A stretch of DNA of 64,000 bases from Patescibacteria group bacterium (GCA_041664365.1 JBAYKW010000001.1:144862-208861); one strand, 5' to 3'. Positions 9,262 through 64,000 are shown, counted from the stretch's first letter. Notes: generated by a model not told the origin, from the letters alone. Numbers and translations are program-made.

Positions 9262-9372
9262 AGTTTTATTGTTAATAATTTAAGACTAATGCTAGCTTAT
9301 ACTATTTATCATGAAAAGTAAAATTAATCCCGGCTTATTTGATCCACGATACGCAAAATATGGGGACTGTCT

Positions 9373-13159: not shown

Positions 13160-13232
13160 ACTTTTTATAATTTATTACTATTCAATATAATTGGCCTGCA
13201 AATGAGAAGTTGACCGTGAGTAATTGTGATAA

Positions 13233-13310
13233 AATTATAACATCACAGGCACAAGAAGACAATTTGCGAAAACCAGCTCTTTTAAGCTGGCTTTCTTGCG
13301 TACGCTCGCC
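13233..13310 (+). repeat. ~75-bp direct repeat copy 1, containing hairpin CCAGCTCTTTTAAGCTGG
   Basis: ...catcacaggcacaagaagacaatttgcgaaaaccagctcttttaagctggctttcttgcgtacg... recurs at 14063-14140 at roughly 90% identity. Confidence 0.75.
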
Positions 13311-13346
13311 TATACTTGCAGTCTATGGCGAGACGCACGCCGTTGG

Positions 13347-13979
13347 TTATTTAATAAAACTTAATATTTGTGACAGGTCATCAATAACGATGTCTGCACT
13401 GGATAAGTCATTACTAATTCTCGATTTGAAACCAATTGTTGTAATACCTAGCTTTTGTGCGACGGGAAAAATAGTAGACATATCATCGATATAAACAATA
13501 TTTTTTGGTTCAATATTAAGGAAACTAAGCGCTTTTTTCAGGCCCTCTGGGTGTGGTTTTGGATGTTCAACGTCCTGACCACTAATTATAAAAGAAAAAT
13601 ATTCTTGGAGATTAAATTTGTTTAAGCCAGAATTTATTCCATATTTATCTACACTGCTTAAAATTCCCATTTTAATTCCTTTTTGAGAAAGTGCCACTAG
13701 AACGTCGTTTGCATTTTTGGTGAGTTTCACAAAATCAGCGTACTTAGGATAGAAAGTTTTCATCATTGGCAATACCTTTTCTATATCTTTTTTTGATACT
13801 CCGTTGTCAAAAAAGAACTTATGCCAGTCTTGTTTTATTTCTTGAAACCAAGTAGAGGGGCCAACTGTTTTTCCGCTAAGTGCTTTAACGATGTCACAAT
13901 TTGCTCGAGCAACGGCATCTAAATCATCAATAATTACTCCATTCCAATCAAAGATAATAGCCTTTATTGTTTTATTCAT
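13347..13979 (-). CDS. HAD-family hydrolase (beta-phosphoglucomutase/phosphatase-like)
   Basis: Motif I IIFDWNGVI (DxDGV-type) and a C-terminal YIDDM motif IV. Confidence 0.75.
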   Translation of the reverse strand: MNKTIKAIIFDWNGVIIDDLDAVARANCDIVKALSGKTVGPSTWFQEIKQDWHKFFFDNGVSKKDIEKVLPMMKTFYPKYADFVKLTKNANDVLVALSQKGIKMGILSSVDKYGINSGLNKFNLQEYFSFIISGQDVEHPKPHPEGLKKALSFLNIEPKNIVYIDDMSTIFPVAQKLGITTIGFKSRISNDLSSADIVIDDLSQILSFIK

Positions 13980-14062
13980 AAATCATATATTCTATAATAA
14001 GCCCATAGAATTTCGCACAATAGGTAGTATATGCGAAGATGCCTTTGTGGTGACTATGATAC

Positions 14063-14140
14063 AATTTTAACATCACGGGCATAAGAAGACAATTTACAGA
14101 AAACCAGCTCTTTTAAGCTGGCTTTCTTGCATACGCGATG
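14063..14140 (+). repeat. ~75-bp direct repeat copy 2 (same orientation as 13233-13310)
   Basis: ...catcacgggcataagaagacaatttacagaaaaccagctcttttaagctggctttcttgcatacg... Confidence 0.75.
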
Positions 14141-16938: not shown

Positions 16939-17224
16939 GACACCACGAGTACATAGTGGGTACCTCCCTGTAGGATCGGGGTTGTGGGGTGGCCAACAGA
17001 TACGGACAGAGTGTCCGCACTACAAAATGGTAGAAGAAAGTGGGGTAGGAGGACACGCATTTAGCAAATCCCAGAGGGCAACATCTGCCCACGGGCGAGC
17101 GAACTCGCCAGTCAATGTTACCCAATGGGTAGCATTTCTGCCTGCTTTTTGGTGTTGCGGTCCTCCCACCCACATCGTTGTTTCAAAGGTCAATATACAA
17201 AGAAAGTAATACAAATATGCCCTA

Positions 17225-34138: not shown

Positions 34139-34148
34139 ACGAAAACTT

Positions 34149-34604: not shown

Positions 34605-34612
34605 TTTATAAA

Positions 34613-42086: not shown

Positions 42087-42097
42087 TATTATTAGTT

Positions 42098-42135
42098 AAA
42101 ATCGACTGTAAAATTGAGCAGTCGGTTTTGATTTA
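42098..42135 (+). terminator. rho-independent terminator after typA
   Basis: AAAATCGACTG...CAGTCGGTTTT hairpin plus T-run. Confidence 0.55.
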
Positions 42136-42138
42136 CAG

Positions 42139-42167
42139 TTGATTTTTAAGCTAAAATATGCTAAGAT
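42139..42167 (+). promoter_or_regulatory. sigma70-like promoter (TTGATT-17-TAAGAT) for paralog 1; duplicated at 42844-42872
   Basis: ttgatttttaagctaaaatatgctaagat. The same string with 4 substitutions lies upstream of paralog 2. Confidence 0.5.
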
Positions 42168-42196
42168 ACGGTCATCTAAGTATTAATCAAAATATT

Positions 42197-42688
42197 ATGG
42201 CAGATCCAAAAATGCCAATGCCTGGCACACCAGATGATAATATGCCTGACGAGACTTCAGTTGATGAGAATAATCAGGAGACAATGGAGGCGGAAGTAAA
42301 CGAAAAAATAAGAGTATTTTTTGCTGATATAACAGAGTTGCGAGCTACCGGTGAGTTTGCTAGGAAAGACATATATAGTCAGTATTTTGACCAAGTATTT
42401 GATTCAATAAGTAAAAGTAAAGGTGAATATGTAAATTTTGATCATGTTGCTAACCAAGTTGACAATGCTACAGATATAATAAGAAGACTTCAGTTTAAAT
42501 GCGAAGCCGAAGCGCGTCATAAAAAGGATGAAGGAAATGATGTTATTAGTGAAAAAATGAATCAATTAGTAAAAAGAGCAGAAGAGATCTTACATCAGAT
42601 AATGGTAATAGCTTATAGAAAACATTACGATCTAGATTATGATGAGGTCCAGAGGGCATATGCAGAAATTCAAAAAGACGAAGAATGA
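42197..42688 (+). CDS. hypothetical acidic protein, M-A-D-P-K-x-P N-terminal family, paralog 1
   Basis: Starts MADPKMPMPG. The C-terminal RAEEILHQIM is shared with paralog 2. The ORF-track start at 42158 lies inside the conserved promoter string and is rejected. Confidence 0.4.
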   Translation: MADPKMPMPGTPDDNMPDETSVDENNQETMEAEVNEKIRVFFADITELRATGEFARKDIYSQYFDQVFDSISKSKGEYVNFDHVANQVDNATDIIRRLQFKCEAEARHKKDEGNDVISEKMNQLVKRAEEILHQIMVIAYRKHYDLDYDEVQRAYAEIQKDEE

Positions 42689-42843
42689 CATTTTGATGAA
42701 AATTTAAACAATAGTAAGAAAGATCAAGTGAAATTGTAACTCATAGAATTGGTGATTGATAGCAATCATCATGATCAGTAATCTTAGAAAAGAATAGTCA
42801 GTAAAATAGACCACAATAGTAGGTGGTCTATTGTTTTGTAGCT

Positions 42844-42872
42844 TGATTTTTAAGCTAAAATGTGGTAAACTT
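42844..42872 (+). promoter_or_regulatory. duplicated sigma70-like promoter (TTGATT-17-TAAACT) for paralog 2
   Basis: ttgatttttaagctaaaatgtggtaaact. Near-identical to 42139-42167. Confidence 0.5.
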
Positions 42873-42899
42873 CACTTAATTAAGTATTAAAACAATATT

Positions 42900-43307
42900 A
42901 TGGCTGATCCAAAACTACCAACATATGGGCAGGATAAAGAGTCTGAAAATAATGTGGAAGTAATGAAGTCATTAGTAAGTCAAAAAACAGAATCGCTATT
43001 TTCTGATTTAATGGAATCATATTCAGAAGATGAAGATCTTAACCTGGAGGATTATCATAGTCAGAATTTTGAATATTATCTAAATAGAATAAGACAATAT
43101 AGTTATATATATCCAGATGGACAGAATCCTGATATGGAGGAAGATGAGCGTTCCTTTTTAAAAAGAATTAAAACTATATGTGAAATGGAAAAAGAATTTC
43201 AGGCAGAAAATATGAATGAAGTTCTGCGAAATAAATATCAAAATTTTACTGAAAGAGCCGAAGAAATTTTACAACTGATAGGTGCCATAATTGATGCGTC
43301 AAAATAA
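42900..43307 (+). CDS. hypothetical acidic protein, M-A-D-P-K-x-P family, paralog 2
   Basis: Starts MADPKLPTYG. C-terminal ERAEEILQLIGAI. Confidence 0.4.
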   Translation: MADPKLPTYGQDKESENNVEVMKSLVSQKTESLFSDLMESYSEDEDLNLEDYHSQNFEYYLNRIRQYSYIYPDGQNPDMEEDERSFLKRIKTICEMEKEFQAENMNEVLRNKYQNFTERAEEILQLIGAIIDASK

Positions 43308-43338
43308 ATAATTATAGTGATAAATAAAGAAAATATTT

Positions 43339-43896
43339 ATGCAAGAAAAACAAGATCCGATATACGCAGATGATGATTATGAATCTGTCGGACTGCTATT
43401 TCGGCTACGCGCGCCGGCACTGATTATTGGGCTGTTTTTGGGCATTATCATTTCTTTTGTTACTTCTAATTTTGAGAAAGTTTTGGAAAAAGACTTTCAA
43501 GTTGCCTATTTTATTCCGTTTATTGTCTATATCGCAGACGCGATTGGCTCACAGACGACGGCTATCTATTCGCGCGACTTAAAGTCCGGAACGACAAAGC
43601 TTGGGAACTATATGAAAAAAGAGTTTTTGCTCGGCCTGTTATTTGGAACAGCGTTTGGTGTTGTATCAGGATTCGTGACTTATTTATGGCTACATAATTA
43701 TTTATTATCAATTACGATAGCTATTTCGGCGGTGCTGGCTATTACTACCGCACCATTAGTAGCCTTGGTTGTAGCCACTTTGTTCCAAAGATCGCACAGA
43801 GATCCGGCGGCGGGAACCGCTCCTATCGCAACCGTACTCCAGGATATTCTAAGCGTTGTGATATACGGTACTGTGGCAAGTATCATAATATTATAA
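43339..43896 (+). CDS. MgtE-family divalent-cation transporter membrane domain only (no N-terminal MgtE_N/CBS module)
   Basis: YFIPFIVYIADAIGSQT and GTAPIATVLQDILSVVIY match the MgtE TM-domain signatures. At 185 aa it has no cytosolic sensor domains. Confidence 0.6.
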   Translation: MQEKQDPIYADDDYESVGLLFRLRAPALIIGLFLGIIISFVTSNFEKVLEKDFQVAYFIPFIVYIADAIGSQTTAIYSRDLKSGTTKLGNYMKKEFLLGLLFGTAFGVVSGFVTYLWLHNYLLSITIAISAVLAITTAPLVALVVATLFQRSHRDPAAGTAPIATVLQDILSVVIYGTVASIIIL

Positions 43897-43921
43897 ACAC
43901 ATAATAAACTAACTAAATTTT

Positions 43922-44461
43922 ATGGGAGATCCAAAACCACCGTTACCAGATGAATTTAACGATCCGCAAATTGACCGTGTGCTTGGCGATGCAGAAATGA
44001 GTGATACGAACCACCTCATTGATAGTGCTGCAAGTGCGGGCAATCCTGAGCAAGGCACCTACCGTGAACCAGCCGACCTAGAAGCACACATCGCGTTGCG
44101 AGACGAGATGTTGGATCAATACTACCGCTATAAAGATAAGTCAAAGCGACCAACTCAAAGAATTGGAGAAAATTTTGAGCCAGCGGCAGATCTGGATGGT
44201 CTTTTGCGACAGATAGAGGTTGTTACCGATGAGTGGCACCGTGATCTGGGTCCTGACGATTCACTAGATTATATGCGAAACGAAGCAGTTCGTGTACTAG
44301 AACTACCACTTATTCAATCACTCGCAATACGTATTAACGAGATACCTGAAGAAAAGCGTAGCGACGTCATTGCACTTCTAGAAGACTTTGCAACTATTGG
44401 TGATGATAGGCGCGCAAGAGAAGAAGCACAATCCATTATTGAACGTCTTCAAGGTGCATAG
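43922..44461 (+). CDS. hypothetical acidic protein, M-G-D-P-K-P-P family, divergent paralog 3 (higher GC)
   Basis: Starts MGDPKPPLPDE. C-terminal ...ARREEAQSIIERLQGA resembles the RAEEIL tail of paralogs 1 and 2. GC is ~47%. Confidence 0.35.
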   Translation: MGDPKPPLPDEFNDPQIDRVLGDAEMSDTNHLIDSAASAGNPEQGTYREPADLEAHIALRDEMLDQYYRYKDKSKRPTQRIGENFEPAADLDGLLRQIEVVTDEWHRDLGPDDSLDYMRNEAVRVLELPLIQSLAIRINEIPEEKRSDVIALLEDFATIGDDRRAREEAQSIIERLQGA

Positions 44462-48303: not shown

Positions 48304-49064
48304 AACAGGATATATTAGGGGTACAAGTCAGTAGGATTAATATGAAGGAAGCGCTGGATGTTATAGAACAATGCGTAGTTTTTCCGCGCTTGAATTATAT
48401 CGTTACTCCCAACCCGGAATTCATTGTACGCGCACAAAAAGATAAAATATTCCGGGACATTTTGAATAACGCTGTGATTGCGCTTCCAGATGGATTTGGT
48501 CTGATGCTCGCCGCGAAGTTTTTGAAACGCCCGCTTAACCAGCGCATAACTGGAGTTGATTTTATCTGGCATGTTGCTGAGCTTGCCGAGAAAAATGATT
48601 ATTCAATATATTTATACGGCGCTGGAAAAGGCATTGCAAAAAAAACAGCACAGAGATTACAGAAAAGATTTCCACATTTGAAAATTCTGGGTGCGGAAAG
48701 CGGGTATGACAAAGATGGTAAAATGAATGATGCTTTGTTTGTTGAAGACATCCGGTTAAAATCCCCGGATATACTGCTGGTTGCGCTGGGAGCACCAAAA
48801 CAGGAAAAATGGATCGCCGCGCATTTGCCGGATTTTACCGGTGTGAAAGTGGCAATGGGCGTGGGCGGAGCATTCGATTATATTTCCGGCAGTATCAAGC
48901 GAGCGCCAAAACTTATTCGAAAGATTGGACTGGAGTGGCTCTACCGTTTAATTCTTCAGCCATGGCGCATAAAGCGGATTTTTACCGCTACAATTCATTT
49001 TACATATTTAGTTATTAAGGTAAAGATAATGGATTCCCGCCTGCGCGGGAATGACATACAATAA
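48300..49064 (+). CDS. WecB/TagA/CpsF-family glycosyltransferase; its C-terminal 10 codons are read from a palindromic repeat unit
   Basis: ILGVQVSRINMKEALDVIEQ...NYIVTPNPEFIV is typical of the TagA/WecG family. The tail ...MDSRLRGNDIQ* is encoded by repeat unit C1 (ggattcccgcctgcgcgggaatgaca). Confidence 0.7.
   Translation: MKQDILGVQVSRINMKEALDVIEQCVVFPRLNYIVTPNPEFIVRAQKDKIFRDILNNAVIALPDGFGLMLAAKFLKRPLNQRITGVDFIWHVAELAEKNDYSIYLYGAGKGIAKKTAQRLQKRFPHLKILGAESGYDKDGKMNDALFVEDIRLKSPDILLVALGAPKQEKWIAAHLPDFTGVKVAMGVGGAFDYISGSIKRAPKLIRKIGLEWLYRLILQPWRIKRIFTATIHFTYLVIKVKIMDSRLRGNDIQ
49031..49056. repeat. palindromic repeat unit C1 (GGATTCCCGC-ctgc-GCGGGAATGACA)
   Basis: 7-bp perfect stem, read directly. 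Reverse-orientation member of the family GTCATyyyCGG...CCGrrATCCA. Confidence 0.7.
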
Positions 49065-49075
49065 CAATTCAATAG

Positions 49076-49095
49076 TGTCATCTTCGGACTCGACT
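49076..49095. repeat. partial repeat unit A' (TGTCATCTTCGGACTCGAC)
   Basis: Matches the first 15 nt of unit A. Confidence 0.5.
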
Positions 49096-49120
49096 TTAAT
49101 GTAATTACCGCTATCTCTCT

Positions 49121-49153
49121 GTCATTATCGGGCTTGGCCCGGTAATCCAAAAA
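49121..49153. repeat. palindromic repeat unit B1 (GTCATTATCGGGCTTGGCCCGGTAATCCAAAAA)
   Basis: Hairpin CGGGC-ttgg-CCCGG. About 75% identical to unit A. Confidence 0.7.
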
Positions 49154-49160
49154 CAATCAA

Positions 49161-49205
49161 TGGATCCCCGGACCACCTTCTGCGAAGGCGTCCGAGGATG
49201 ACAAT
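49161..49205. repeat. palindromic repeat unit D (GGATCCCCGGACC-loop-GTCCGAGGATGACA) with internal hairpin CCTTC-tgc-GAAGG
   Basis: Same terminal arms as C1 with a longer loop. Confidence 0.6.
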
Positions 49206-49242
49206 ACTGGGGTTTACTGACATGTCAAATACAATTTTTAAT

Positions 49243-49272
49243 GTCATCTTCGGACTTGGTCCGGAGATCCAC
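49243..49272. repeat. palindromic repeat unit A1 (GTCATCTTCGGACTTGGTCCGGAGATCCAC)
   Basis: Exact 30-nt copy recurs at 49645-49674. Hairpin CGGAC-ttg-GTCCG. Confidence 0.8.
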
Positions 49273-49281
49273 GAATAGAAT

Positions 49282-49569
49282 ATGAACCAATACTACGTTT
49301 ACATAATGGCAAGTAAAAAGAATGGAACGCTTTACATAGGCGTTACGAATAATATTATCAGAAGAGTATATGAGCATAAGAATAATGAAGTTGAAGGATT
49401 TTCGAAGAAATATAAAGTGCATAGACTAGTCTATTACGAGCAAACAGAAAATGTGGAGAGTGCATTGAATCGTGAAAAGCAATTAAAAAAGTGGAATAGA
49501 GAGTGGAAAATTAATTTAATACAAAAAGAAAATCCGAATTGGAAAGATTTATATAACGAGCTAATATAA
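49282..49569 (+). CDS. GIY-YIG nuclease-family protein (UPF0213/YhbQ-like)
   Basis: YYVYIMASKKNGTLYIGVTNNIIRRVYEHK contains the GIY...YIG...R...E catalytic motifs. At 95 aa it resembles E. coli YhbQ. Confidence 0.75.
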   Translation: MNQYYVYIMASKKNGTLYIGVTNNIIRRVYEHKNNEVEGFSKKYKVHRLVYYEQTENVESALNREKQLKKWNREWKINLIQKENPNWKDLYNELI

Positions 49570-49575
49570 AGACAT

Positions 49576-49626
49576 GGATTCCCGTTCCCCGATCAAGTCG
49601 AGGACAAGCTTTGCGGGAATGACAAA
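49576..49626. repeat. palindromic repeat unit C2 (GGATTCCCG-long loop-CGGGAATGACA)
   Basis: Same arms as C1 with an expanded loop. Confidence 0.6.
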
Positions 49627-49644
49627 CAATGTAGTATAACAAAT

Positions 49645-49674
49645 GTCATCTTCGGACTTGGTCCGGAGATCCAC
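49645..49674. repeat. palindromic repeat unit A2 (exact copy of A1)
   Basis: gtcatcttcggacttggtccggagatccac is identical to 49243-49272. Confidence 0.8.
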
Positions 49675-49689
49675 AAACAATCTAAAACT

Positions 49690-49722
49690 GTCATTCTCGG
49701 GCTTGACCCGGGAATCCAAAAA
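49690..49722. repeat. palindromic repeat unit B2 (GTCATTCTCGGGCTTGACCCGGGAATCCAAAAA)
   Basis: Differs from B1 at 4 positions. Confidence 0.7.
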
Positions 49723-51220: not shown

Positions 51221-51817
51221 ATGAAGTTTGAAGTTGAAAAAAGAAGTAAAATAGATGATGCTGAAGAAATAGAAAGAGTTAAGGAATACTTATCTGCACA
51301 CGGAGAGTACCTGGGCTCAAAAATGATGCGCTCTTTTCTATTTCGGAATCCTACATCTCTACGAATTCGTCTGATTGAAGGAAAGGATTCAGCATTGGTT
51401 ACAATAAAGAAAGGTGAATATGCTGATCCGGCGATGGAAGAAGAGGAGTATGAAGTACCATTAACAGAATTAGATGCTTTTATTGAGCAAAAAAAAGTTG
51501 AAGGCTATGAGGCATGTTCAGAAGTAAATACTTTTCGCGAAACATATATTTTAAATGGATTGAAAATTGAGATAAATGATATTGATTCTTTGGGTTTGAT
51601 TATTGAGATAGAGGCATTGACTGAAGATAAAGATGAAATAGATGGTTTAGAAGAACGAATTCGTGAGACAATGCAGGAATTAAATTTGCCGGAACTCGAT
51701 CCATCTGAATATAAATTGATGATGGACGCAATGCAGGACGAAACAAATAGGCCAGTAAGTGAGCAAGTTTTTACAGTTGATTGGGATGAAGATATTAATG
51801 AGAAGAAAATTAAGTAA
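51221..51817 (+). CDS. CYTH-domain protein (triphosphate tunnel metalloenzyme, CyaB/ThTPase-like)
   Basis: N-terminal MKFEVEKRSKI resembles the CYTH ExExK motif. Acidic beta-strand pattern throughout. Confidence 0.45.
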   Translation: MKFEVEKRSKIDDAEEIERVKEYLSAHGEYLGSKMMRSFLFRNPTSLRIRLIEGKDSALVTIKKGEYADPAMEEEEYEVPLTELDAFIEQKKVEGYEACSEVNTFRETYILNGLKIEINDIDSLGLIIEIEALTEDKDEIDGLEERIRETMQELNLPELDPSEYKLMMDAMQDETNRPVSEQVFTVDWDEDINEKKIK

Positions 51818-52374
51818 TGAGTCTAATGAGTAGAACCTGGAAAAAATTGAATTCAAAGATTGTATATAGTAACTCTTGGATAAAAGTCCATGAGGATCAA
51901 GTTTTGAAGCCGGATGGTAAGGAAGGTATCTATGGTTATCTGGAAAAAAACCAAGCTTGCTTTGTGATAGCGCTGGATAATGAAGAAAATATCTATCTGG
52001 TAAAACAGTTCAGATATGCTCTGCAAAAAACAATTCTGGAATTACCGGCCGGTACGGTAAATAATGAAGATATCGCTGATAGAGCAAAAGCGGAACTTTT
52101 GGAAGAAGCAGGAATAGAAGCAAAGGAATGGAAAAGGCTGGGTGGGTTTTACGTAGCACCAGGGCATGAATCTACTTATATTAATGTTTACCTCGCGACG
52201 GATTTAGATTTATCCAAACTATCTACCAGTGGGCAAGATGATGATGAATCAATATTGGAGATAGTTAAAGTAAGTCAGCCAGAATTAAAGAAGATGTTAA
52301 CAGATGGAAAGATTGAATGCGGAATATCGATAGCCGCTTTGAATCTGTTTTTTCTGAGTCATAATAAAAGTTAA
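51817..52374 (+). CDS. Nudix hydrolase (ADP-ribose pyrophosphatase NudF-like)
   Basis: Nudix box AGTVNNEDIADRAKAELLEEAGI. N-terminal substrate-recognition beta-domain. Confidence 0.7.
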   Translation: MSLMSRTWKKLNSKIVYSNSWIKVHEDQVLKPDGKEGIYGYLEKNQACFVIALDNEENIYLVKQFRYALQKTILELPAGTVNNEDIADRAKAELLEEAGIEAKEWKRLGGFYVAPGHESTYINVYLATDLDLSKLSTSGQDDDESILEIVKVSQPELKKMLTDGKIECGISIAALNLFFLSHNKS

Positions 52375-52384
52375 GATTGTGAGT

Positions 52385-52460
52385 ATGAAAAAGATTGAGA
52401 AAAAAGTTTGGCAGGAATATTTTCAGTAAATATTGGATGGTAACAAAAAATTAAAAACTT
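52385..52460 (+). pseudogene. decayed 5' fragment of the DUF3850 gene (intact copy at 53479)
   Basis: atgaaaaagattgagaaaaaagtttggcaggaatattttcagTAAatattggatgg... is ~88% identical to 53479-53550 and translates MKKIEKKVWQEYFQ* with an in-frame stop. Confidence 0.7.
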
Positions 52461-52478
52461 TATTGTTAAATAAATATT

Positions 52479-53420
52479 ATGCTAGAAAAATCAACCCAGG
52501 AGAAAGAGCAAAAACGTATTGTTAAAAAAATTAGCGGTTTTACAATATTAGGAATATTTTTGACTGTAGGTTCCTTGCCGGTTTGGTTTGGTGGTAATAT
52601 GGTAGGATACTTGCTACGTTTTGAAGAGTGGTATGCCTTCAATATTTTTAATTATTTTGCATTTGTCATGCTTCTTGTTGGTGTGTATTTCCTCATCAAG
52701 GCAAACCAAAAAAGCCAACAAAAAAATATACCAACAAATTCTACTAAGTATGCATTTATCGCTGCATCTTTTTGTCTATTGATAATATTCTTAACAATAG
52801 TGTTTCCCAGTTTAAACACAATTATTAAAAAAAACATAACTCCTTTATCAACATTTGTTCTTGATGACGGATCATTTATTAGTGTACGTGAATATAGAGA
52901 ATACTCAAAAAAATTGATTGGCATTTTACCTGGAAATAATTTAAATGAGGATAGAGTTGATGTTGTAAGAGCACGTGTTGTAAACAGCAAATACGAATTT
53001 ATTTGGGAAAATGTATATTTGAGAAAATCAACACAAGGTTTAAGTGTGACGCCAGGTACAGCAATAGAGGGTGCAAACATTATGGAAGAGATTTCTAATA
53101 GAATTCCAAATGTTCTGCATTTGGATAACTATGATGGTAAGACGATTAGGAAATGTTCAGATGGAAGTATTCAAATTGCCTGGGAAAAAACAAGTCGGGA
53201 TAGTTCCCCAATAAATGATGCACATATAGATATTGATACAGGAAAAACTGTTGCATTTCAGAATGTTGCATTTCCACATCTGGAATTTGAGCAACCATTA
53301 TGTGACGAAACTATACCTGAAAGTATATGGCAAGATATGAGTCACTGTCTTGGAAACAGCCAGATCGAAACATTATCTGGCAAAGAGTGTTCCGAGGCTG
53401 TCTTTAAGACTTTGCAATGA
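52479..53420 (+). CDS. hypothetical membrane protein (2-3 N-terminal TM helices plus a soluble domain)
   Basis: 313-aa ORF with N-terminal hydrophobic helices. No recognised motif. Confidence 0.3.
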   Translation: MLEKSTQEKEQKRIVKKISGFTILGIFLTVGSLPVWFGGNMVGYLLRFEEWYAFNIFNYFAFVMLLVGVYFLIKANQKSQQKNIPTNSTKYAFIAASFCLLIIFLTIVFPSLNTIIKKNITPLSTFVLDDGSFISVREYREYSKKLIGILPGNNLNEDRVDVVRARVVNSKYEFIWENVYLRKSTQGLSVTPGTAIEGANIMEEISNRIPNVLHLDNYDGKTIRKCSDGSIQIAWEKTSRDSSPINDAHIDIDTGKTVAFQNVAFPHLEFEQPLCDETIPESIWQDMSHCLGNSQIETLSGKECSEAVFKTLQ

Positions 53421-53478
53421 GAATCATTATTAGTAAATATAGATATTAGTTTATATTAGAGTATATAATACCCAGAAA

Positions 53479-53742
53479 ATGAAAAAAATTGAGAAAAAAG
53501 TTTGGCCGGAATATTTTCAGCAAATACTGGACGGTGACAAGAAATACGAACTTCGTCTTGCTGATTTTGACTGCCAACCCGGTGATGTATTGCTATTAAA
53601 AGAATGGGACAATAAAACCAAAAAATATACCGGCAGGGAAATTGAAAAGGAAGTAACTTCCATTTTGAAAACAAAGGATGTAAAATTTTGGAATGAAGAG
53701 GAAATAGATAAACATGGGTTTCAGATTATTTCTTTTAAGTAA
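53479..53742 (+). CDS. DUF3850 (ASCH/PUA-like) domain protein
   Basis: KVWPEYFQQILDGDKKYELRLADFDCQPGDVLLLKEWD matches the DUF3850 consensus (W.EYF..V..G.K.FE.R.ND..FQVGD.L.L.E). Confidence 0.55.
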   Translation: MKKIEKKVWPEYFQQILDGDKKYELRLADFDCQPGDVLLLKEWDNKTKKYTGREIEKEVTSILKTKDVKFWNEEEIDKHGFQIISFK

Positions 53743-53788
53743 TGTAATAATCACGTTTAAGAAATTAGATTATTAAATAAATAGTTAT

Positions 53789-54286
53789 ATGGAAAAATTC
53801 AGTCTGCCGATTATTTCCGCGATTATTGAGAGGCAAAAAGACGGAGAAACAGAAATATTGGTTCAAACTAGGTGGAAACCGGAAGAAGATCCTGTATATA
53901 CGGGATGTTTGGAAATTCCGGCAGGAAAAATAAGGGAATTTGAAAATGTCTATGATGCTTTAAATAGAGAGGTGAAGGAAGAAACGGGGTTGAAAATAAC
54001 CAGTATTTTTCCAGATATTAAAACAAAAACGCATTCTCCAAAGGATGACGGATCGTTCGCTTTTCAGCCGTTTTGCTGCCAGCAACAAACAAAAGGAGGA
54101 CGACCATGGATCGGTTTCGTTTTTATTTGCAATGTTGAGGATAAGACACCATTAAAGGAGGGGGATAATACAAGAGATATTCGTTGGATAAAAAAATCTG
54201 AATTGAAGAGAATTTTTGAAGAAACACCAGAAAAGATATTTACCCTGCAATTAGGGGTTTTGGATTATTACTTTAATAAAAGTTAG
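53789..54286 (+). CDS. Nudix hydrolase
   Basis: Nudix box AGKIREFENVYDALNREVKEETGL. Confidence 0.65.
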   Translation: MEKFSLPIISAIIERQKDGETEILVQTRWKPEEDPVYTGCLEIPAGKIREFENVYDALNREVKEETGLKITSIFPDIKTKTHSPKDDGSFAFQPFCCQQQTKGGRPWIGFVFICNVEDKTPLKEGDNTRDIRWIKKSELKRIFEETPEKIFTLQLGVLDYYFNKS

Positions 54287-54321
54287 GTATTATTTTGTGA
54301 TTAAAACATTCAAGGCATTAC

Positions 54322-54418
54322 ATGATCAAAATCAGAAAACACTTGCCGAAAGATATTCCGTACCGTGTTTTATGGTTAATTACCACAAGGTAAACAGGTT
54401 CACTGGTGAGGGAGTTTG
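54322..54418 (+). pseudogene. decayed 5' fragment (~100 nt) of the GNAT acetyltransferase gene (intact copy at 56592)
   Basis: atgatcaaaatcagaaaacacttgccgaaagatattccgtaccgtgttttatggtt... is ~88% identical to 56592-56695. It translates MIKIRKHLPKDIPYRVLWL then frameshifts (1-nt deletion) to a stop. Confidence 0.7.
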
Positions 54419-54476
54419 CTTCGAAACCACAATAAAATGATTTTACTAATTATTTAATGATGTGTTCATAGAATTT

Positions 54477-54953
54477 ATGGCATTAATATACGAGTCAATA
54501 AACTATATAGTAGAAGCAGTAGAGAAACCTCATGTGGATAGAAATGATGGTGGTCATATTAAGATATATCCAAAAGTTAGAATCATAGATAGGCAGCAAC
54601 TTTCTCCAAAACTGGCTATTGAATTGATGAGATTGACAATGGTTGTCGGAGAGGCAATGAAGATCGCAATGGCCAAAAGTGGTATTAAAATAATGAGAGT
54701 TAATTATCAGGATATGGGTAATTGGGCTTTTAAAAAAAATGAAAAACCATATTTTCATATCCATATTTATGGGAGAGCAAAAAATGCAAAATTTCAACCA
54801 TTTCAGGAAGCAGTCAAACTGCCTGATAGAGCTTCTGGATTCTATGATAAATTTATTCCCTTAAATCCTGTAGATATCAAGGGCATAAGAGCTGAGATTA
54901 ACAGGCTAATAAAAGAAAATAAATATTCTGAGTCTGATTGGGGAATTCTATAA
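54477..54953 (+). CDS. HIT-like domain protein (histidine-triad-like FHIHIYGR motif)
   Basis: YFHIHIYGRAKN resembles the HIT HxHxH(xx) loop. The ORF-track start at 54462 is a GTG, so the first ATG is used instead. Confidence 0.35.
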   Translation: MALIYESINYIVEAVEKPHVDRNDGGHIKIYPKVRIIDRQQLSPKLAIELMRLTMVVGEAMKIAMAKSGIKIMRVNYQDMGNWAFKKNEKPYFHIHIYGRAKNAKFQPFQEAVKLPDRASGFYDKFIPLNPVDIKGIRAEINRLIKENKYSESDWGIL

Positions 54954-54971
54954 AAAATATATGAATAAAAT

Positions 54972-55880
54972 ATGAAATTCAAACAGATAGTATTATTAGA
55001 CAAGGTGGGACTTTCTGATAACGCGGTTGAGAAACTTGCGAAATTTTCTGATAGCCCGATAAAGACATTTTCCTCTGATCCTGCGGATGAAGCGGAAGTG
55101 TGTAAAAGAATCTCGGATGCTGACTGCATCATGCTGACCTGGCGGACATCAATATCAAAAGAAGTGCTTGCAAAGTGTGAGAACCTGAAATTCATCTGCC
55201 TTTGCTCTACTAATTCCAATAATATTGATCTGAATGAATGTGCAAAAAGAGGTATCACAGTTTCCAACGTGCGCGATTATGGAGACGAGGGAGTTGTGGA
55301 GTGGATTATCATGCAGTTATTGCTCCTGTTCAGAGGAGTCGGAAAAAATCAATATAAAGGGTTTAGTTCAGAACTAAGCGGGAAAACAATCGGGATATTT
55401 GGTATGGGTGTTGTAGGAAAACTGCTTGCCAAGGCAGCAAAAGGTCTTGGTATAAATGTTTTGTATAACAGTAAAACCAGGAATTCTGATCTGGAAAAAC
55501 AGGGGATACAGTTTGTGGAGAAAAGCAGTCTGCTGGCGAAGAGTGATATCATTGGCCTGCATACACCGAAGAATGTAAAGATTTTGGACAAATCGGACTT
55601 CGATCTGATGCAAGGAAAAATTCTCGTTAATACAACCCTGGGAAAAGCATTTGATTCAAGCGATTTTATGAGATGGATTAAGCGTGAAAATAATTTTGCG
55701 ATATTTGATGGAGCGTCAGAATTTGGCGCGGAATTTGAGGGATTGGATAGAGTAATATATTCAGATGTAGTCTCTGGTTTAACAAATGAAGCAATAGAAA
55801 GATTGAGCCAAAAAACCTTAGATAATGTAGCCTCATATATTTCGGGTAATCCGATTAATGTAGTCACAGGTTTAAAATAA
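54972..55880 (+). CDS. D-isomer-specific 2-hydroxyacid dehydrogenase family protein
   Basis: GIFGMGVVGKLLAKAAKGLGINVLY (GxGxxG NAD-binding motif) plus downstream catalytic R/E/H positions. Confidence 0.8.
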   Translation: MKFKQIVLLDKVGLSDNAVEKLAKFSDSPIKTFSSDPADEAEVCKRISDADCIMLTWRTSISKEVLAKCENLKFICLCSTNSNNIDLNECAKRGITVSNVRDYGDEGVVEWIIMQLLLLFRGVGKNQYKGFSSELSGKTIGIFGMGVVGKLLAKAAKGLGINVLYNSKTRNSDLEKQGIQFVEKSSLLAKSDIIGLHTPKNVKILDKSDFDLMQGKILVNTTLGKAFDSSDFMRWIKRENNFAIFDGASEFGAEFEGLDRVIYSDVVSGLTNEAIERLSQKTLDNVASYISGNPINVVTGLK

Positions 55881-55892
55881 ATATAATAATTC

Positions 55893-55945
55893 ATGCTCAA
55901 AATCCGAAAAAATTTACCGAGAGATATTCCATGCCGGTTTTTTTA
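55893..55945 (+). pseudogene. decayed 5' fragment (~50 nt) of the GNAT acetyltransferase gene
   Basis: atgctcaaaatccgaaaaaatttaccgagagatattccatgccggttttt is ~85% identical to 56592-56641. It translates MLKIRKNLPRDIPCRFF*. Confidence 0.65.
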
Positions 55946-55958
55946 AACAAAAAAATAT

Positions 55959-56588
55959 ATGAATAAAAAAAGAATACTATGTTATGGCGATTCCAATACT
56001 TGGGGATGTGTCCCTGGAACCAGGTTTGAAAGATTTTCTGAGGAAATCAGATTTCCAAAGCGCCTCCAAAAACTATTAGGGACTGATTTTGAAATTATTG
56101 AAGAAGGACTATACAGCCGGACACTGGCATCTGAATATGATCGACCGAATAAAGAGGGTAGAAATGGGAGTACGTATTTTGTCCCATGCCTTTTATCTCA
56201 TGATCCGCTAGATTTGGTAATTATAATGCTTGGAACTACAGAATTAAAAGCAGAATTCAATAATTCGGTGGAAGAAATTGGTAGATATCTGGAGGACTAT
56301 TATATTAGAGTTATTTCGAAAATCAAATATCTGACTCGAGATGAATCTCCTGAATTATTAATTATATGTCCACCAATAATTAACGAGAGTCTTACGTCCA
56401 AAAGATATGCCGGTGGGGAGGAGAAATCGAAACAGTTAGCTGGGGTGTATTCAAAAATTTCCAATAGTAACAAATGTGCGTTTATTGACGCAAGTAAACT
56501 AATGGTTGGTTCTGACGGAGTTCATATGACGGAAGAAAGTCATAAGAAACTTGCGGAAATGATTGCATATGAAATAAATAAGAAGTAA
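55959..56588 (+). CDS. SGNH/GDSL-family hydrolase
   Basis: ILCYGDSNTWG (block I GDS), block III GTTE and block V DGVHMT. Confidence 0.75.
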   Translation: MNKKRILCYGDSNTWGCVPGTRFERFSEEIRFPKRLQKLLGTDFEIIEEGLYSRTLASEYDRPNKEGRNGSTYFVPCLLSHDPLDLVIIMLGTTELKAEFNNSVEEIGRYLEDYYIRVISKIKYLTRDESPELLIICPPIINESLTSKRYAGGEEKSKQLAGVYSKISNSNKCAFIDASKLMVGSDGVHMTEESHKKLAEMIAYEINKK

Positions 56589-56591
56589 TTT

Positions 56592-57101
56592 ATGCTCAAA
56601 ATCAGAAAACATTTACCGAAAGATATTCCGTACCGTGTTTTATGGTTGAATGACCATAAGGTAAACAAGTTTACTGGTGAGGAAGTTTGGGAAGAGACAA
56701 CACTGAGGAAACAAAAACAGTGGTTTGCCGAATATCAAAAGTCTGACGAAAAACGTTTTTTTACCATCTGTGACGGAACGAAGCCGGTTGGATTCATGGG
56801 ACTGTCTAAAATATCCAAGATAAATAAAAATGCGGATTTGTTTGTTGCCATCGGTGATGCTGATTACCGCGGAAAAGGCGTAGGAAGATTAGTAATGACC
56901 TGGATAATTGATTACGGTTTTAATAAGCTCAAACTGCATAAAATTTATTTGAACGTCTATGAGGATAATATTCCGGCAGTTAATTTATATAAATCTTTGG
57001 GCTTTGTCGTAGAGGGGAAGATAAAAGATGATGTTTTCTTTGGAGGGAAATTCCATAACACTTTGTACATGGCAAAATTTTATAAACGATCTAAAAAGTA
57101 A
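56592..57101 (+). CDS. GNAT-family N-acetyltransferase
   Basis: YRGKGVGRLVMTWIIDYGF...LKLHKIYLNVYEDNIPAVNLYKSLGF contains acetyl-CoA-binding motif A (R/QxxGxG/A). Confidence 0.75.
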   Translation: MLKIRKHLPKDIPYRVLWLNDHKVNKFTGEEVWEETTLRKQKQWFAEYQKSDEKRFFTICDGTKPVGFMGLSKISKINKNADLFVAIGDADYRGKGVGRLVMTWIIDYGFNKLKLHKIYLNVYEDNIPAVNLYKSLGFVVEGKIKDDVFFGGKFHNTLYMAKFYKRSKK

Positions 57102-57117: not shown

Positions 57118-57576
57118 ATGCGCCACAAAGCTTTTTCTTCCATCGTCAATATACTTACGCTTTGCATAATCATCGGAGCAGTAAGTTTTTATTCAATTGA
57201 TCATTCTGAATGGACCGGAATTATTCTTATTCTATTATCCGTTATCTGCGTAGTTTCATTGTTGCCGTTTAAAATAAAATTAAAATCATTGAAACCAGAT
57301 ATTATATTCGGTTTGATTGATAATGGCATTCTCGCCGTGATGGCGATATTCGGCGGACATTTTGCCGGGGTGGCTGGCGCGGTTATGGGTGGAGTGGTTG
57401 GCAATGCCATCACGGACGGTATCGCGGGCATCTTTGAGGGACGGTCGGCGGAAAAACTGCGCCAACAGCTGATACCGGAAGAGCGTACTATGCTGAAATC
57501 AGCAGTCGGCAAAATGGCCGGGTGTCTTTTGGGTGCCGGGATAATTTTATTAATTGCGGATTTATTTAACTTTTAA
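57118..57576 (+). CDS. membrane protein with glycine-zipper segment
   Basis: Two TM helices followed by GGHFAGVAGAVMGGVVGNAITDGIAGIFEG. Start placed at the ATG at 57118 (MRHKAFSS), after the GNAT stop. Confidence 0.35.
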   Translation: MRHKAFSSIVNILTLCIIIGAVSFYSIDHSEWTGIILILLSVICVVSLLPFKIKLKSLKPDIIFGLIDNGILAVMAIFGGHFAGVAGAVMGGVVGNAITDGIAGIFEGRSAEKLRQQLIPEERTMLKSAVGKMAGCLLGAGIILLIADLFNF

Positions 57577-57578
57577 AT

Positions 57579-57983
57579 ATGTCAGAAAAAAGAGTTTCAG
57601 CAGTGATTATCAGTGGAGATAAACAAATATTGTTAGTCCATAGGATAAAAAATGGCAGTGAATATTTTGTTTTGCCCGGCGGGAGTGTTGAGACGGAAGA
57701 AGATCATATATCTGCCCTGATCAGAGAAGTAAAAGAGGAAACAAATTTAGATGTGAAAATTGGAAAAGAACTTTGGCAGGTAAAAAGTGATGCTGATCGG
57801 AGAATTCAACATATATTCCTAGTTTCAAAATATGCTGGTAATCTGGAATTAGGCAGTCCGGAAAAAGAAAGGCAATCAGAAAGTAACAAATACTTTTTGG
57901 AGTGGCGTAAGATTGAAGATATTAGCAATATTGATTTTTATCCAGAAGAAATTAGATTAAACATTATTAAAGAATTCGCATGA
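57579..57983 (+). CDS. Nudix hydrolase
   Basis: Nudix box GGSVETEEDHISALIREVKEETNL. Confidence 0.7.
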   Translation: MSEKRVSAVIISGDKQILLVHRIKNGSEYFVLPGGSVETEEDHISALIREVKEETNLDVKIGKELWQVKSDADRRIQHIFLVSKYAGNLELGSPEKERQSESNKYFLEWRKIEDISNIDFYPEEIRLNIIKEFA

Positions 57984-58598: not shown

Positions 58599-58916
58599 AT
58601 GTCAATTGAAGGCGAGCAAAACGTAGATCGGGACCGAAAACCGCAAGCATTTATCCGCTTCGGTCTGCCGGGCCATGAGACGGAATATGTGTTCAAAACA
58701 CAGGCGAATAAGTACAGCGAAGCTGAAACGATGTCGGACGAATGGGAATACGCAATTACGCAACAACTGGGCGCGGAATGGGCTGTGATGAATCGCGGTG
58801 AAAGAATAGAAATAATCCCTCCGCGTAGTCAGCGGACTCCAGAAACGGATCAAAAAGTTAATCAAGTGATAATGTCTGTAATTGGGGATGGTTACGAATT
58901 TCCTGAGGAAGAATAA
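58599..58916 (+). CDS. hypothetical acidic protein
   Basis: 105-aa ORF with no recognised motif. Confidence 0.3.
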   Translation: MSIEGEQNVDRDRKPQAFIRFGLPGHETEYVFKTQANKYSEAETMSDEWEYAITQQLGAEWAVMNRGERIEIIPPRSQRTPETDQKVNQVIMSVIGDGYEFPEEE

Positions 58917-60681: not shown

Positions 60682-61479
60682 ATGAAGATTATCAGCTTAA
60701 ATGTCGGGATTAAGATTGACAACTCAAAACAAGTTGGTGAGTTTATTCAATCACAGAATCCGGATATAGTTGCATTTCAGGAAATTATCCGAAATTTGGA
60801 TGAATCAGTTTATGATATTTACCGCTCAAAAGAACATATCGAGAAAATAATCGGTAAAGAACTGCCGTATTCTTTTTTCGGTCCGCTTTTTGTTGCTAGA
60901 GATTTTACGAAGGATGGAAAGATTCATAGAGATTTTGGCGGTTACATAGAACAGGGGAATGAGGTTATCTCAAAATTTCCGATTAATGAAGCAACAAACG
61001 AATTTTATTATAAAGCGTATTCATACGATAAAGACCGCACGAACTTTGCAACAGAGGATAATTCAAGGGCACTACAGGTTGTTGATTTGGATATCGCTGG
61101 TCAAAAATTGATTATTATCAATGTGCACGGAACATACTCAAAAGATAAGCAGGATAGCGAAAGATCACTCGCGCAGTCAAAATATGTAATTAAAGTAGCG
61201 TTAAGGAAAAAATTGCCAACTATAATAGTCGGTGATTTTAACCTGTTTCCGGAGACAAACAGTATTAAAATTATCAACAGAAAATTCAGAAATTTAGTTG
61301 TTGAAAATAAAATAAAAACAACCAGGCCTAAATTTGATGATGGTTTAGATAAAGGAGAAAATGTCGTGGATTATATTTTTGTTAATGATCAGATCAAAGT
61401 TAATAAGTTTGAGCTTATTGATACCAATATTTCAGACCATCTTCCAATAATACTGGATTTCGATATTATAAAAAAATAA
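60682..61479 (+). CDS. endonuclease/exonuclease/phosphatase (EEP) family protein
   Basis: N-terminal IISLNVG...IVAFQEI and C-terminal SDHLPI are EEP catalytic motifs. Confidence 0.75.
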   Translation: MKIISLNVGIKIDNSKQVGEFIQSQNPDIVAFQEIIRNLDESVYDIYRSKEHIEKIIGKELPYSFFGPLFVARDFTKDGKIHRDFGGYIEQGNEVISKFPINEATNEFYYKAYSYDKDRTNFATEDNSRALQVVDLDIAGQKLIIINVHGTYSKDKQDSERSLAQSKYVIKVALRKKLPTIIVGDFNLFPETNSIKIINRKFRNLVVENKIKTTRPKFDDGLDKGENVVDYIFVNDQIKVNKFELIDTNISDHLPIILDFDIIKK

Positions 61480-61904: not shown

Positions 61905-61975
61905 ATTTTGATCAAATAAAAAAACCGCATTCAGCAAAGATTGCTGGTGCGGTGTGGGGAATGAACGGCGTTCAG
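61905..61975. terminator. bidirectional terminator-like hairpin between convergent genes
   Basis: AAAAAACCGC...GCGGTTTTTTT with internal complementarity. Marks the boundary into the high-GC segment. Confidence 0.45.
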
Positions 61976-63969
61976 CGCGGTTTTTTTGCATGCAGCAGAT
62001 CTTTGAGAAATGCTGAAAACAGCGCTAGGTCAGCATGAGCGAAACGGATTGTTCTGGCGCTGAAAAGTAGCCAGATCCTTCCGTGGGCAACTCTGTGTTT
62101 CAAAATCCGCCAATGCTCCTCAATGTCCACCCGTGTGTTTCTGGCTGAAGTACGCATGTTGGCCAGTCGTAAACCACTTGGTACCTTATGACCATGTGAT
62201 TTATACAAACTCCTTAGCTCAGAGAGTTTGAGGTTCGGCCAATGGCCCGCATGCTTCTTTTCAACCAGCTGGATGACCTCTTCCTCGATCTTGCCCTGTT
62301 CACGGGTTTGTAGCCACACTTCCAGCATGATCCGCAGGAACCGGGCTGTCTCCCGGGCTAGGCGGATGTTTTCACGCGTGTTGTAGACCCAAAACTGGAA
62401 CAGATTGAGCTGAGGAAAACTGCTCCTCCTCGAATGCCGGGATCGCACCCGGGCAAAACCCGCCACCATCGGATGGCGTTTCGGCACCATCAGCGCGTAT
62501 TTGTACCAGACGAGGTTCCAGAAGATCTTCCAGTAATCCTGCCTTTCCGTATGTTTGAGGATACGTACCATGTTCTCGGTGGAATAGAACGTCTCCCACG
62601 CAGACCGGTAGGCGGATAGCCACTCCTCCCGGGTCATCAGCGGGTGATCTATGACCGGATGTGAGAATGAGTCGAAGGAGTTCAGGTCCGAATCCATCGG
62701 TACACCGGCTAGGAACAGCCGTTTGTGATCCATTGCTCCCGGCAGTGGTGTGGCAATGAAAAACGACACGGTATCCGGTTCCAGCTCCATCAGCTGAAGA
62801 ACGTCCTTATGCACTGATTCCGGCGTGTCGTGCGGCAGGCCGATCATGAAGGCAAGGTGGGTCGCGATGCCGTGCTTTTTGAAGGCAGACATCATTTCCC
62901 GGAACTGCTCCACGTGGTTTTGGCCTTTGCCGACCGCAGACAAGTTCAAAGGGTTCAGACTTTCGATCCCGATGAACGCCATCGAACAGCCGGCCAGCGC
63001 CGCTTTTTCTAGGAATTGCGGAATCTTGTGGCACTGGGTATCCACCTGCATCAGGAAGTGAATATGGATTCTTTCTTCTTTCTGCATGGCGATCAGCGTG
63101 TCGAAGCGCTCTTCCCAAAAAGGATCTCGGGCTGTGTTGTCAGAAGTCAGGAAGTAGACCCGAATGCCCAATCTCCAGTTGGCTCGGATCGCGTCCGCGA
63201 AACCCTGAACGCCTCGCGCCCTAATCACCCTGCCTTGGACTACCCAGATCGTGCAGTACTGGCAGTTGAATGGGCATCCACGGCACGCGTCGATGGTGCT
63301 GGTGTTCGGATAGACGAATCGGTGCTTAATCTCCGCAATGGACATTGGAACCGGTTCCTCCAGAAGGCTCGGCGGATCGTCGACGTAGTTGTATGTCGGC
63401 TTGAGACCGCCGGACAGAAAGTCCTGCAGCAATCCCAGCATCCTGCCTTCTGCTTCACCGGCAAACAGCGCCACGCCATTGTCGGTCAGAGCTTTCAGAC
63501 CCAGTTCCTTGTAGGCTCTCATGTTATCCGCGCTCCCGTCCTGCGGAAACTGCTTCAGGATTCCGGACACATGGTATCCGCCCATGATCACGGAAATTCC
63601 CCGTTTCCTGAACTCGAGCGCAAGATCGGAAGCTCGTACGAACTGGCTGGTTTGAACACCGGCCAGCATTACCAGAGTACGTCCGGGAAGGGTACGGCAG
63701 AGAAAAGCTATCCTGCTCGGCAGAACAGCCTCCACCGCCTCGTCGTAGATTCTGACGACGATGTGCACCTTGATTCCCAGTCGCAGATTTTGCCTCACAT
63801 CCTGAATCAGGCTGTAAAGCGTCGCCAGCGTATTGCTGGGATACACGCCCCGGAAGTCCTGCCAGACAAAGCCGTTCTCATCGTCGTATTTTGACGGTTT
63901 GATCAGCACCAAGTTGAGGACTTTCTTTCCCGAAAGCACAGCCCAGAAAGACGTTGTTTGTCTCGCCAA
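61972..63969 (-). CDS. B12-binding-domain radical SAM protein (cobalamin-dependent rSAM with DUF4070-like C-terminus), in a high-GC segment
   Basis: N-terminal Rossmann-like B12-binding region, then CRGCPFNCQYC (the CxxxCxxC radical SAM cluster motif) and a ~250-aa C-terminal domain. GC is ~58%. Confidence 0.75.
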   Translation of the reverse strand: MARQTTSFWAVLSGKKVLNLVLIKPSKYDDENGFVWQDFRGVYPSNTLATLYSLIQDVRQNLRLGIKVHIVVRIYDEAVEAVLPSRIAFLCRTLPGRTLVMLAGVQTSQFVRASDLALEFRKRGISVIMGGYHVSGILKQFPQDGSADNMRAYKELGLKALTDNGVALFAGEAEGRMLGLLQDFLSGGLKPTYNYVDDPPSLLEEPVPMSIAEIKHRFVYPNTSTIDACRGCPFNCQYCTIWVVQGRVIRARGVQGFADAIRANWRLGIRVYFLTSDNTARDPFWEERFDTLIAMQKEERIHIHFLMQVDTQCHKIPQFLEKAALAGCSMAFIGIESLNPLNLSAVGKGQNHVEQFREMMSAFKKHGIATHLAFMIGLPHDTPESVHKDVLQLMELEPDTVSFFIATPLPGAMDHKRLFLAGVPMDSDLNSFDSFSHPVIDHPLMTREEWLSAYRSAWETFYSTENMVRILKHTERQDYWKIFWNLVWYKYALMVPKRHPMVAGFARVRSRHSRRSSFPQLNLFQFWVYNTRENIRLARETARFLRIMLEVWLQTREQGKIEEEVIQLVEKKHAGHWPNLKLSELRSLYKSHGHKVPSGLRLANMRTSARNTRVDIEEHWRILKHRVAHGRIWLLFSARTIRFAHADLALFSAFLKDLLHAKKPR

Positions 63970-64000
63970 TTCACGCAGAACGGCGATGACAGCATGCGAC

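Follow-up and report, generated by a model that had tools for sequence, protein, structure and literature searches.

Decayed gene starts beside added genes at a hypervariable locus of a Patescibacteria genome: a possible record of one-sided homologous recombination

We analysed a 64-kb stretch of DNA (the window) from the genome of an uncultivated member of the Patescibacteria (candidate phyla radiation, CPR), hereafter genome W. Between 51.8 and 57.1 kb the window carries a run of co-directional small genes (CYTH, Nudix, membrane protein, DUF3850/ASCH, Nudix, HIT-like, dehydrogenase, GDSL and GNAT), in which decayed copies of the 5' ends of two of these genes, the GNAT acetyltransferase gene and the DUF3850 gene, stand next to unrelated genes. 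Three such decayed gene starts fill nearly all of the intergenic space of the run. The locus is most likely a scar that recombination between close relatives left at one hypervariable spot, rather than a novel type of mobile element. We put at about one half the probability that one-sided homologous recombination between close relatives stacked alternative versions of the locus in tandem. Gene gain in the tiny genomes of Patescibacteria is poorly understood; the locus is a natural record of three successive additions at one spot, and relatives sampled together with W display alternative states of it.

All features of the run lie on the plus strand. Its conserved left flank is a Nudix gene (51817..52374, 185 amino acids (aa), Pfam NUDIX and NDPSase_N), followed by a decayed DUF3850 5' fragment (52385..52460) that keeps its start codon and has an in-frame TAA at codon 15. 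Unit 1 consists of a gene for a predicted membrane protein of 313 aa with no significant Pfam family (52479..53420) and a 58-nucleotide (nt) trailer (53421-53478), and leads into the intact DUF3850/ASCH gene (53479..53742, Pfam DUF3850, 7.5e-18), the first ~70 nt of which are repeated in the fragment. The region's best promoter-like site (TAGATA-18-TATAAT at 53440-53469) lies in the trailer, promoter-like sites overall being at chance level. A second Nudix gene (53789..54286, 165 aa, Pfam NUDIX, 3.2e-15) lies upstream of GNAT fragment A (54322..54432), which is 111 nt long and has lost 1 nt after nt 56. Unit 2 carries a HIT-like gene (54477..54953, 158 aa, weak Pfam HIT) and a D-2-hydroxyacid dehydrogenase gene (54972..55880, Pfam 2-Hacid_dh and 2-Hacid_dh_C). 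It is followed by GNAT fragment B (55893..55942), the most decayed copy, which spans ~45-50 nt at 80-83% identity overall and reads as a 17-codon open reading frame ending in TAA. Unit 3 carries a GDSL/SGNH hydrolase gene (55959..56588, Pfam Lipase_GDSL_2) and adjoins the intact GNAT gene (56592..57101, Pfam Acetyltransf_1/3/4), which is the conserved right flank and whose nt 1-111 are the repeat partner. These Pfam assignments agree with the gene identities given in a first-pass annotation of the window (Nudix, DUF3850/ASCH, weak HIT, 2-Hacid_dh, GDSL and GNAT). No tRNA gene was present at the region, an Rfam search of 48.5-58 kb gave no match, and PADLOC returned two weak matches only, PDC-S07 (4.8e-11) and PDC-M11A (2e-4).

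The repeats were measured by a BLAST comparison of the window with itself. Fragment A (54322-54431) aligns with the intact GNAT gene (56592-56702) at 86.5% identity over 111 nt (E=4.5e-28) with the single 1-nt deletion; by tblastn it encodes GNAT residues 1-19 (95%) and then residues 19-39 in a shifted frame. Fragment B aligns at 82.9% over 70 nt (55875-55942 versus 56572-56641, E=5e-11), the true homology being about the ATG plus 45 nt, with 3 mismatches within the first 38 nt. The two fragments match each other at 80.4% (54321-54371 versus 55892-55942, E=2.7e-6). With up to 3 mismatches allowed, the 38-nt string with which GNAT begins was found at three places, and the number expected from 100 shuffles was 0.00. 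The DUF3850 pair is 89.6% identical over 67 nt (52385-52451 versus 53479-53545, E=1e-16). The first-pass annotation had reported the first ~50-105 nt of GNAT at 54322, 55893 and, intact, at 56592, and the 5' end of DUF3850 at 52385 and, intact, at 53479. Both sets were confirmed, with 80-86.5% identity in the GNAT set; their extents were revised, the copy at 54322 (fragment A) reaching 111 nt and the copy at 55893 being homologous over ~45-50 nt only.

In fragment A and in the DUF3850 fragment the repeat opens at the ATG, preceded by 8-10 unrelated bases (2-3/8 match); in fragment B it opens ~5-7 nt 5' of the ATG. The inner ends of the repeats differ, falling at 45, ~70 and 111 nt. The identity of the fragments falls from left to right (90%, 86% and ~80%), and this gradient weakly suggests that additions were made on the Nudix side.

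The window is part of the 392-kb MEGAHIT contig k141_744634 (ENA ERZ27249449), and the same sequence stands in GenBank (MFA6391338.1, MFA6391339.1). Contigs of two independent assemblies, JGI 3300037810 and Logan SRR6484324, reproduced every junction at 99.9-100% identity (52215-54276, 53154-55267 and 54348-56645). The junctions of the repeat units are present in three assemblies, each single junction being spanned in two or three independent ones. The Logan contigs break at 54348 and 56645, inside a 31-nt block that is identical in fragment A and the intact GNAT gene, as is expected of a genuine repeat. Such breaks, together with the presence of three related genomes in the sample, could also be taken to favor an assembly chimera in which co-occurring strains were joined at shared sequence. 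However, the decayed fragments differ from every intact copy, and a chimera does not account for junctions that recur in independent assemblies; we regard its probability as negligible. The repeats are a real feature and no assembly artefact.

Two sister genomes from the same sample as W, GCA_041666845.1 (G2, locus L005) and JBAYGW01 (G3, locus L009), contain the flanks of the locus. The flanking genes have 78-89% nt identity among W, G2 and G3, and the interval between them differs. The left Nudix gene is 81-86% identical (nt) to its orthologues in G2 (L005 8944-9489) and G3 (L009 956-1513), and orthologues of GNAT lie at the same chromosomal position (84% aa in G2, 79% aa in G3). The gene order is Nudix-HIT-GNAT in G2 and Nudix-DUF3850-GATase-GNAT in G3. 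In W it is Nudix, DUF3850 fragment, membrane protein, DUF3850, the 165-aa Nudix, GNAT fragment A, HIT, dehydrogenase, GNAT fragment B, GDSL and GNAT. No internal repeats were found at the Nudix-GNAT locus of G2 or of G3. Because the flanks are conserved in the three genomes but the contents of the interval differ, the Nudix-to-GNAT interval is a hypervariable locus between conserved genes. The first-pass annotation had named three findings as grounds for giving up its account of the repeats (the same gene order without repeats in related strains, an assembly artefact, and similarity under 70% confined to a low-complexity, AT-rich start region), and none of them was made.

The comparison with G3 bears directly on unit 1. 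The segment 51811-52451 of the window, which holds the Nudix gene and the DUF3850 fragment, is colinear with the Nudix-DUF3850 junction of G3, and therefore the fragment is the original gene start left in place. The intact DUF3850 gene of W (84% nt identity to that of G3) has a new 58-nt upstream region and stands behind the membrane-protein gene, which is missing between Nudix and DUF3850 in G3. The additive architecture proposed in the first-pass annotation, in which the old 5' end marks the outer edge and the gene is restored intact downstream, was thus upheld. The empty sites that it had suggested looking for in relatives were found in part: DUF3850 directly follows Nudix in G3, an arrangement that could be either a pre-insertion or a post-excision state, but GNAT directly after Nudix was not found, the upstream neighbor of GNAT being HIT in G2 and GATase in G3.

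The comparison with G2 bears on unit 2. The HIT gene of W is 74% (nt) and 64% (aa) identical to the HIT gene that in G2 lies directly between Nudix and GNAT (L005 9496-9975), and the homology opens 9 nt 5' of the ATG, at the stop codon of the G2 Nudix gene. With 64% aa identity against 83-91% for the flanks, HIT has diverged further than they have, which fits import. At nt 4 and 25 fragment A is G3-like, whereas the intact GNAT gene and fragment B are G2-like; over nt 57-100, fragment A has W-specific states in common with the intact gene. Gene-by-gene identities among W, G2 and G3 are likewise mosaic and the three genomes are about equidistant, so that the mosaic sites could not be polarised on a simple (W,G2),G3 tree. 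Among the three genomes the first 56-60 nt of GNAT (56592-56647, L005:10001-10056 and L009:2364-2419) are 90-93% identical, and the rest of the gene is 72-93% identical per 60-nt block, mostly 75-87%. A scan of metagenomes for the GNAT 5' string returned contigs of G2 and G3 only, the scanned collection evidently being without the short contigs that bear the W copies.

We propose that co-occurring sister lineages carry different genes in the Nudix-GNAT interval, and that donor DNA from a relative with the cargo beside the same bounding gene (DUF3850 or GNAT) would recombine homologously at one side only. In route (a), a circle carrying the cargo and 45-111 nt from the start of the bounding gene would integrate by a Campbell-type single crossover; route (b) would be homology-facilitated illegitimate recombination (HFIR) or unequal crossover. 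Either route would add the cargo without replacing the resident genes and would leave a truncated second 5' end of the bounding gene, and this truncated copy, being under no selection, would decay. A repeat that opens where the versions of the locus become homologous and has an arbitrary other end points to a product of one-sided homologous recombination. The units of W mirror the versions of its relatives, with a DUF3850 fragment after Nudix as in G3 and HIT before a GNAT start as in G2, which supports stacking, and the mosaic states in fragment A and the gene-by-gene identities fit exchange among close relatives. The identities of the donors, the order of events and the choice between routes (a) and (b) are matters on which we can only infer.

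Events of this kind are known from the laboratory. Of 60 candidate events from an HFIR screen in E. coli, 56 had arisen when a circular molecule bearing a truncated homology segment integrated by a single crossover; the insert was then flanked by a duplication of 109-950 bp of the homologous locus (PMC3240628). Campbell-type and HFIR events, described in Acinetobacter, S. pneumoniae, P. stutzeri and E. coli (PMC3240628), share with W a partial duplication that flanks the insert and a repeat that opens where homology between donor and recipient starts and ends arbitrarily, and they require neither a dedicated recombinase nor a special site. These were, however, laboratory selections with engineered substrates and 109-950 bp duplications, whereas the events in W are natural, occurred three times at one locus and left repeats of 45-111 nt. 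A natural parallel is found in the effector-immunity arrays of the type VI secretion system (T6SS) of Vibrio cholerae (PMC5361080) and in orphan modules of Rhs and contact-dependent inhibition (CDI) systems, in which versions of a locus are stacked with fragments of the bounding gene between them, as in W; HFIR-type sequential displacement has been proposed for the T6SS immunity arrays and the Rhs orphan arrays (PMC5361080). There, however, the repeated piece is taken from the conserved portion of the toxin gene upstream, and toxin/immunity pairs under kin-competition selection make up the cargo; in W it is the gene downstream whose 5' end is repeated, and the units carry unrelated enzymes and a membrane protein.

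Integrons and clusters of attC sites lacking integron-integrases (CALINs) resemble W in being co-directional arrays of small, mostly single-gene units, but the W locus has no attC-like imperfect palindromes, integron integrase or attI, and its repeats are coding 5' ends. Hallmarks of transposons and insertion sequences are likewise absent: we found no terminal inverted repeats and no other inverted repeats at the unit boundaries, the repeats vary from 45 to 111 nt, and by Pfam the cargo (membrane protein; HIT and dehydrogenase; GDSL) includes neither a transposase nor an integrase. In other Patescibacteria, integron-like arrays (L017, L042 and L038) do include the same GNAT family among their cassettes. 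The array in L017 (1-20489, Gracilibacteria metagenome-assembled genome JAVEWJ010000001.1) has a tyrosine recombinase gene on the minus strand (538-1350, Phage_integrase and SAM_4) beside an imperfect-palindrome repeat of 100-200 nt that recurs every 0.7-2.5 kb, in 12 copies or more; the GNAT cassette lies at 10001-10489. Integron-like arrays were also seen in L042, L038, L036, L025, L034 and L054, and homologous integrases or fragments of them lie near GNAT in five further loci. Attachment-site-like repeats of the attC type (ACATCG..AACAGCG...CGTTA) are present in L025, L034 and L036; L034 had been a candidate for another gene-5' repeat and was rejected, its repeat being an attC-like site of an integron-type array.

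Two further genes of the window are flanked by direct repeats. An HAD hydrolase gene (13347-13979, minus strand, Pfam HAD_2; whole feature 13202..14136) lies between 105-nt repeats (13202-13305 and 14031-14136) that are 84% identical over 106 nt (E=6e-22), their 38-nt hairpin part being 97% identical. Each of these repeats is non-coding and comprises a terminator-like hairpin and a promoter-like stretch. We sought the HAD empty site through homologues of the neighboring gene and found no close orthologue in G2 or G3, the 52% homologue not being syntenic. A GIY-YIG gene (49282-49569, plus strand, 95 aa) lies between ~110-nt repeats of an intergenic region (49045..49722, by self-BLAST), which is rich in repetitive extragenic palindromic (REP)-like units (GGATTCCCGC..GCGGGAATGACA; TGTCATCTTCGGACTTGGTCCGGAGATCCA). 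In G2 (L005 5860-6030) this intergenic sequence is present once and the gene is absent. Since the HAD and GIY-YIG inserts are at intergenic sites, repeat-flanked additions need no gene 5' end. In total, five inserts of 0.5-1.6 kb in the 64 kb have flanking repeats (45-130 nt), and their sites are both coding and non-coding.

Several findings weigh against stacking by one-sided homologous recombination. A homology of 45 nt is about the shortest that RecA-type recombination can use. Some versions of the model predict a Nudix 3' remnant where each unit begins on the left; none was found above background, the sole match being a stretch of 9-10 nt 5' of HIT that W shares with G2. The anchor may have been on the GNAT or the Nudix side. 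HIT-GNAT (in G2) and Nudix-DUF3850 (in G3) were seen in relatives, but no donor was found with membrane protein-DUF3850, dehydrogenase-GNAT (HIT-dehydrogenase-GNAT) or GDSL-GNAT adjacency. The closest homologues of the GDSL gene are 71-73% identical and lie in two unrelated contexts without GNAT, and were rejected as donors. Four repeat-flanked inserts fall within the ~16 kb that W shares with its relatives, and none was found in 20 kb of G2 or 13 kb of G3; this density hints at something specific to the W lineage that the stacking model leaves unexplained. Finally, a W-specific 105-aa gene (58599-58916) was inserted without repeats. It is one of several repeat-less presence/absence differences among the sister genomes (57118-57983, 58599-58916, 60724-61468 and 61970-64000): a 152-aa protein is missing in G3, Nudix126 and Exo_endo_phos are missing in G2, and the 105-aa protein and a radical SAM gene are in W only among the three.

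The first-pass annotation had instead attributed the locus to successive site-specific integrations into gene 5' ends. Such cassettes would be integrase-less, each with a replacement 5' end, and would depend on a recombinase encoded elsewhere. The architecture is indeed that of islands and prophages at dusA (PMC4482086) and of accretion at tRNA genes, in which a gene 5' end is used, the original end stands outside, the insert supplies a new 5' end (in W with a promoter-like upstream region) and partial copies are left. As in gene-end islands, the target in W is regenerated and the displaced end lies at the outer boundary, where the DUF3850 fragment keeps the Nudix junction; GNAT was struck twice, the insert density seems specific to the W lineage, and synonymous sites of the first 19 GNAT codons show a weak, non-significant excess of conservation among the three relatives (81-88% versus 54-65%, p=0.01-0.38). 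However, dusA elements are tens of kb long, have a boundary integrase and use one fixed position with a semi-conserved att core of 21 bp, whereas the units of W are 0.7-1.5 kb long and have no common core, variable ends and no integrase that we could find. A tblastn search (E<10) with the Patescibacteria integron-type integrase from L017, which matches five other GNAT loci, found no tyrosine recombinase anywhere in the window, and no recombinase is listed in gene tables that reach ~1.3-22.3, 25.6-35.1 and 43.5-64 kb (about two thirds of the window), as the first-pass annotation had stated. A conserved crossover core common to the GNAT and DUF3850 starts was considered and rejected, the similarity being within the background of 84 gene starts. 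Since one GNAT fragment stops at nt 45 and the other at nt 111, no fixed crossover site is indicated; two sites would be required. The three fragments and the intact 5' ends fold no better as DNA hairpins than shuffles on either strand (z -1.4 to +0.9). No further GNAT 5' fragments were found in the 52 other genomes, species representatives, that carry this GNAT family, nor is there family-wide nucleotide or synonymous conservation of the GNAT 5' end; viral contigs scanned for both 5' strings and for the GNAT family yielded nothing. The HIT-GNAT adjacency is ordinary in the G2 chromosome, without repeats, and elsewhere in the window inserts flanked by repeats lie between genes. The structural inference of the first-pass annotation is therefore right, but its inference of site-specific integration is unsupported, and so is that of a dedicated cassette-capture system, against which the 52 genomes and the intergenic inserts both speak; we consider dedicated integration unlikely. 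The unexplained insert density and the donors missing for two of the three units nevertheless leave some room for a trans-acting enzyme. In a related version, a shade more doubtful in our view, a lineage-specific accretion of cassettes unlike integrons would bring in integrase-less units with a replacement gene start through a recombinase or nuclease encoded elsewhere. It may strike resident genes within 50-110 nt of their start, or promoter regions, and may yield co-directional arrays under the resident promoter.

Two other explanations dispense with site-specific recombination. Whole copies of GNAT and DUF3850 may have been gained together with their neighbors, the older, redundant copies later losing their 3' parts. 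Redundant copies are expected to decay, genomes of Patescibacteria are prone to deletion, and L035 has an internal GNAT fragment (9126-9266, residues 92-139) upstream of an intact GNAT gene. In W, however, this would require three independent deletions, each reaching to 14-45 nt before the next start and sparing the first 45-111 nt, and no 3' or internal fragments are left. Moreover, the DUF3850 fragment occupies the position of the intact gene in G3 and the intact copy is displaced, for which a single-step event is simpler. We hold such two-step decay to be as improbable as dedicated integration. A sequence-independent insertion that makes target-site duplications of 45-130 nt, for example by filling widely staggered nicks around a captured fragment, would be a new mechanism. 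It would accommodate all five repeat-flanked inserts of the window, coding and non-coding, and their lack at the loci of the relatives. But it predicts a random left edge, whereas the start codon was hit in at least 2/3 coding cases, for which we infer a chance of ~0.05 each; fragment A and the intact GNAT gene differ where each matches a different relative; and neither an associated enzyme nor terminal repeats nor conserved ends came to light. This explanation is highly improbable.

If the recombination reading is true, exchange among co-occurring sister lineages can add genes and not merely replace them, and decaying gene-start fragments could serve in metagenome-assembled genomes as markers of genes gained recently. 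Should a dedicated enzyme be at work, the locus would instead represent a cassette-capture system without attC sites.

Some other features of the window were noted. Nudix genes are dense, with at least 7 in 64 kb (for example 11160-11588, 33581-35050, 51817-52374, 53789-54286 and 57579-57983), three of them being consecutive at ~33.6-35.1 kb. They stand alongside CYTH, HIT-like, His_Phos and Exo_endo_phos genes, in a neighborhood rich in nucleotide and phosphoester hydrolases. Three tandem paralogues at 42069-44461, the products of which begin with MADPK or MGDPK, have a common promoter-like region and first codons; these genes (42158-44461) were considered as remnants and rejected, all being intact paralogues. 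An inverted similarity of 187 nt (69%, E=3e-25) connects 9799-9985 with 38412-38598, which are presumably paralogous genes. The G+C content is 52-55% in 8001-9000, 16001-17000 and 62001-64000, and the average of the window is 39%.

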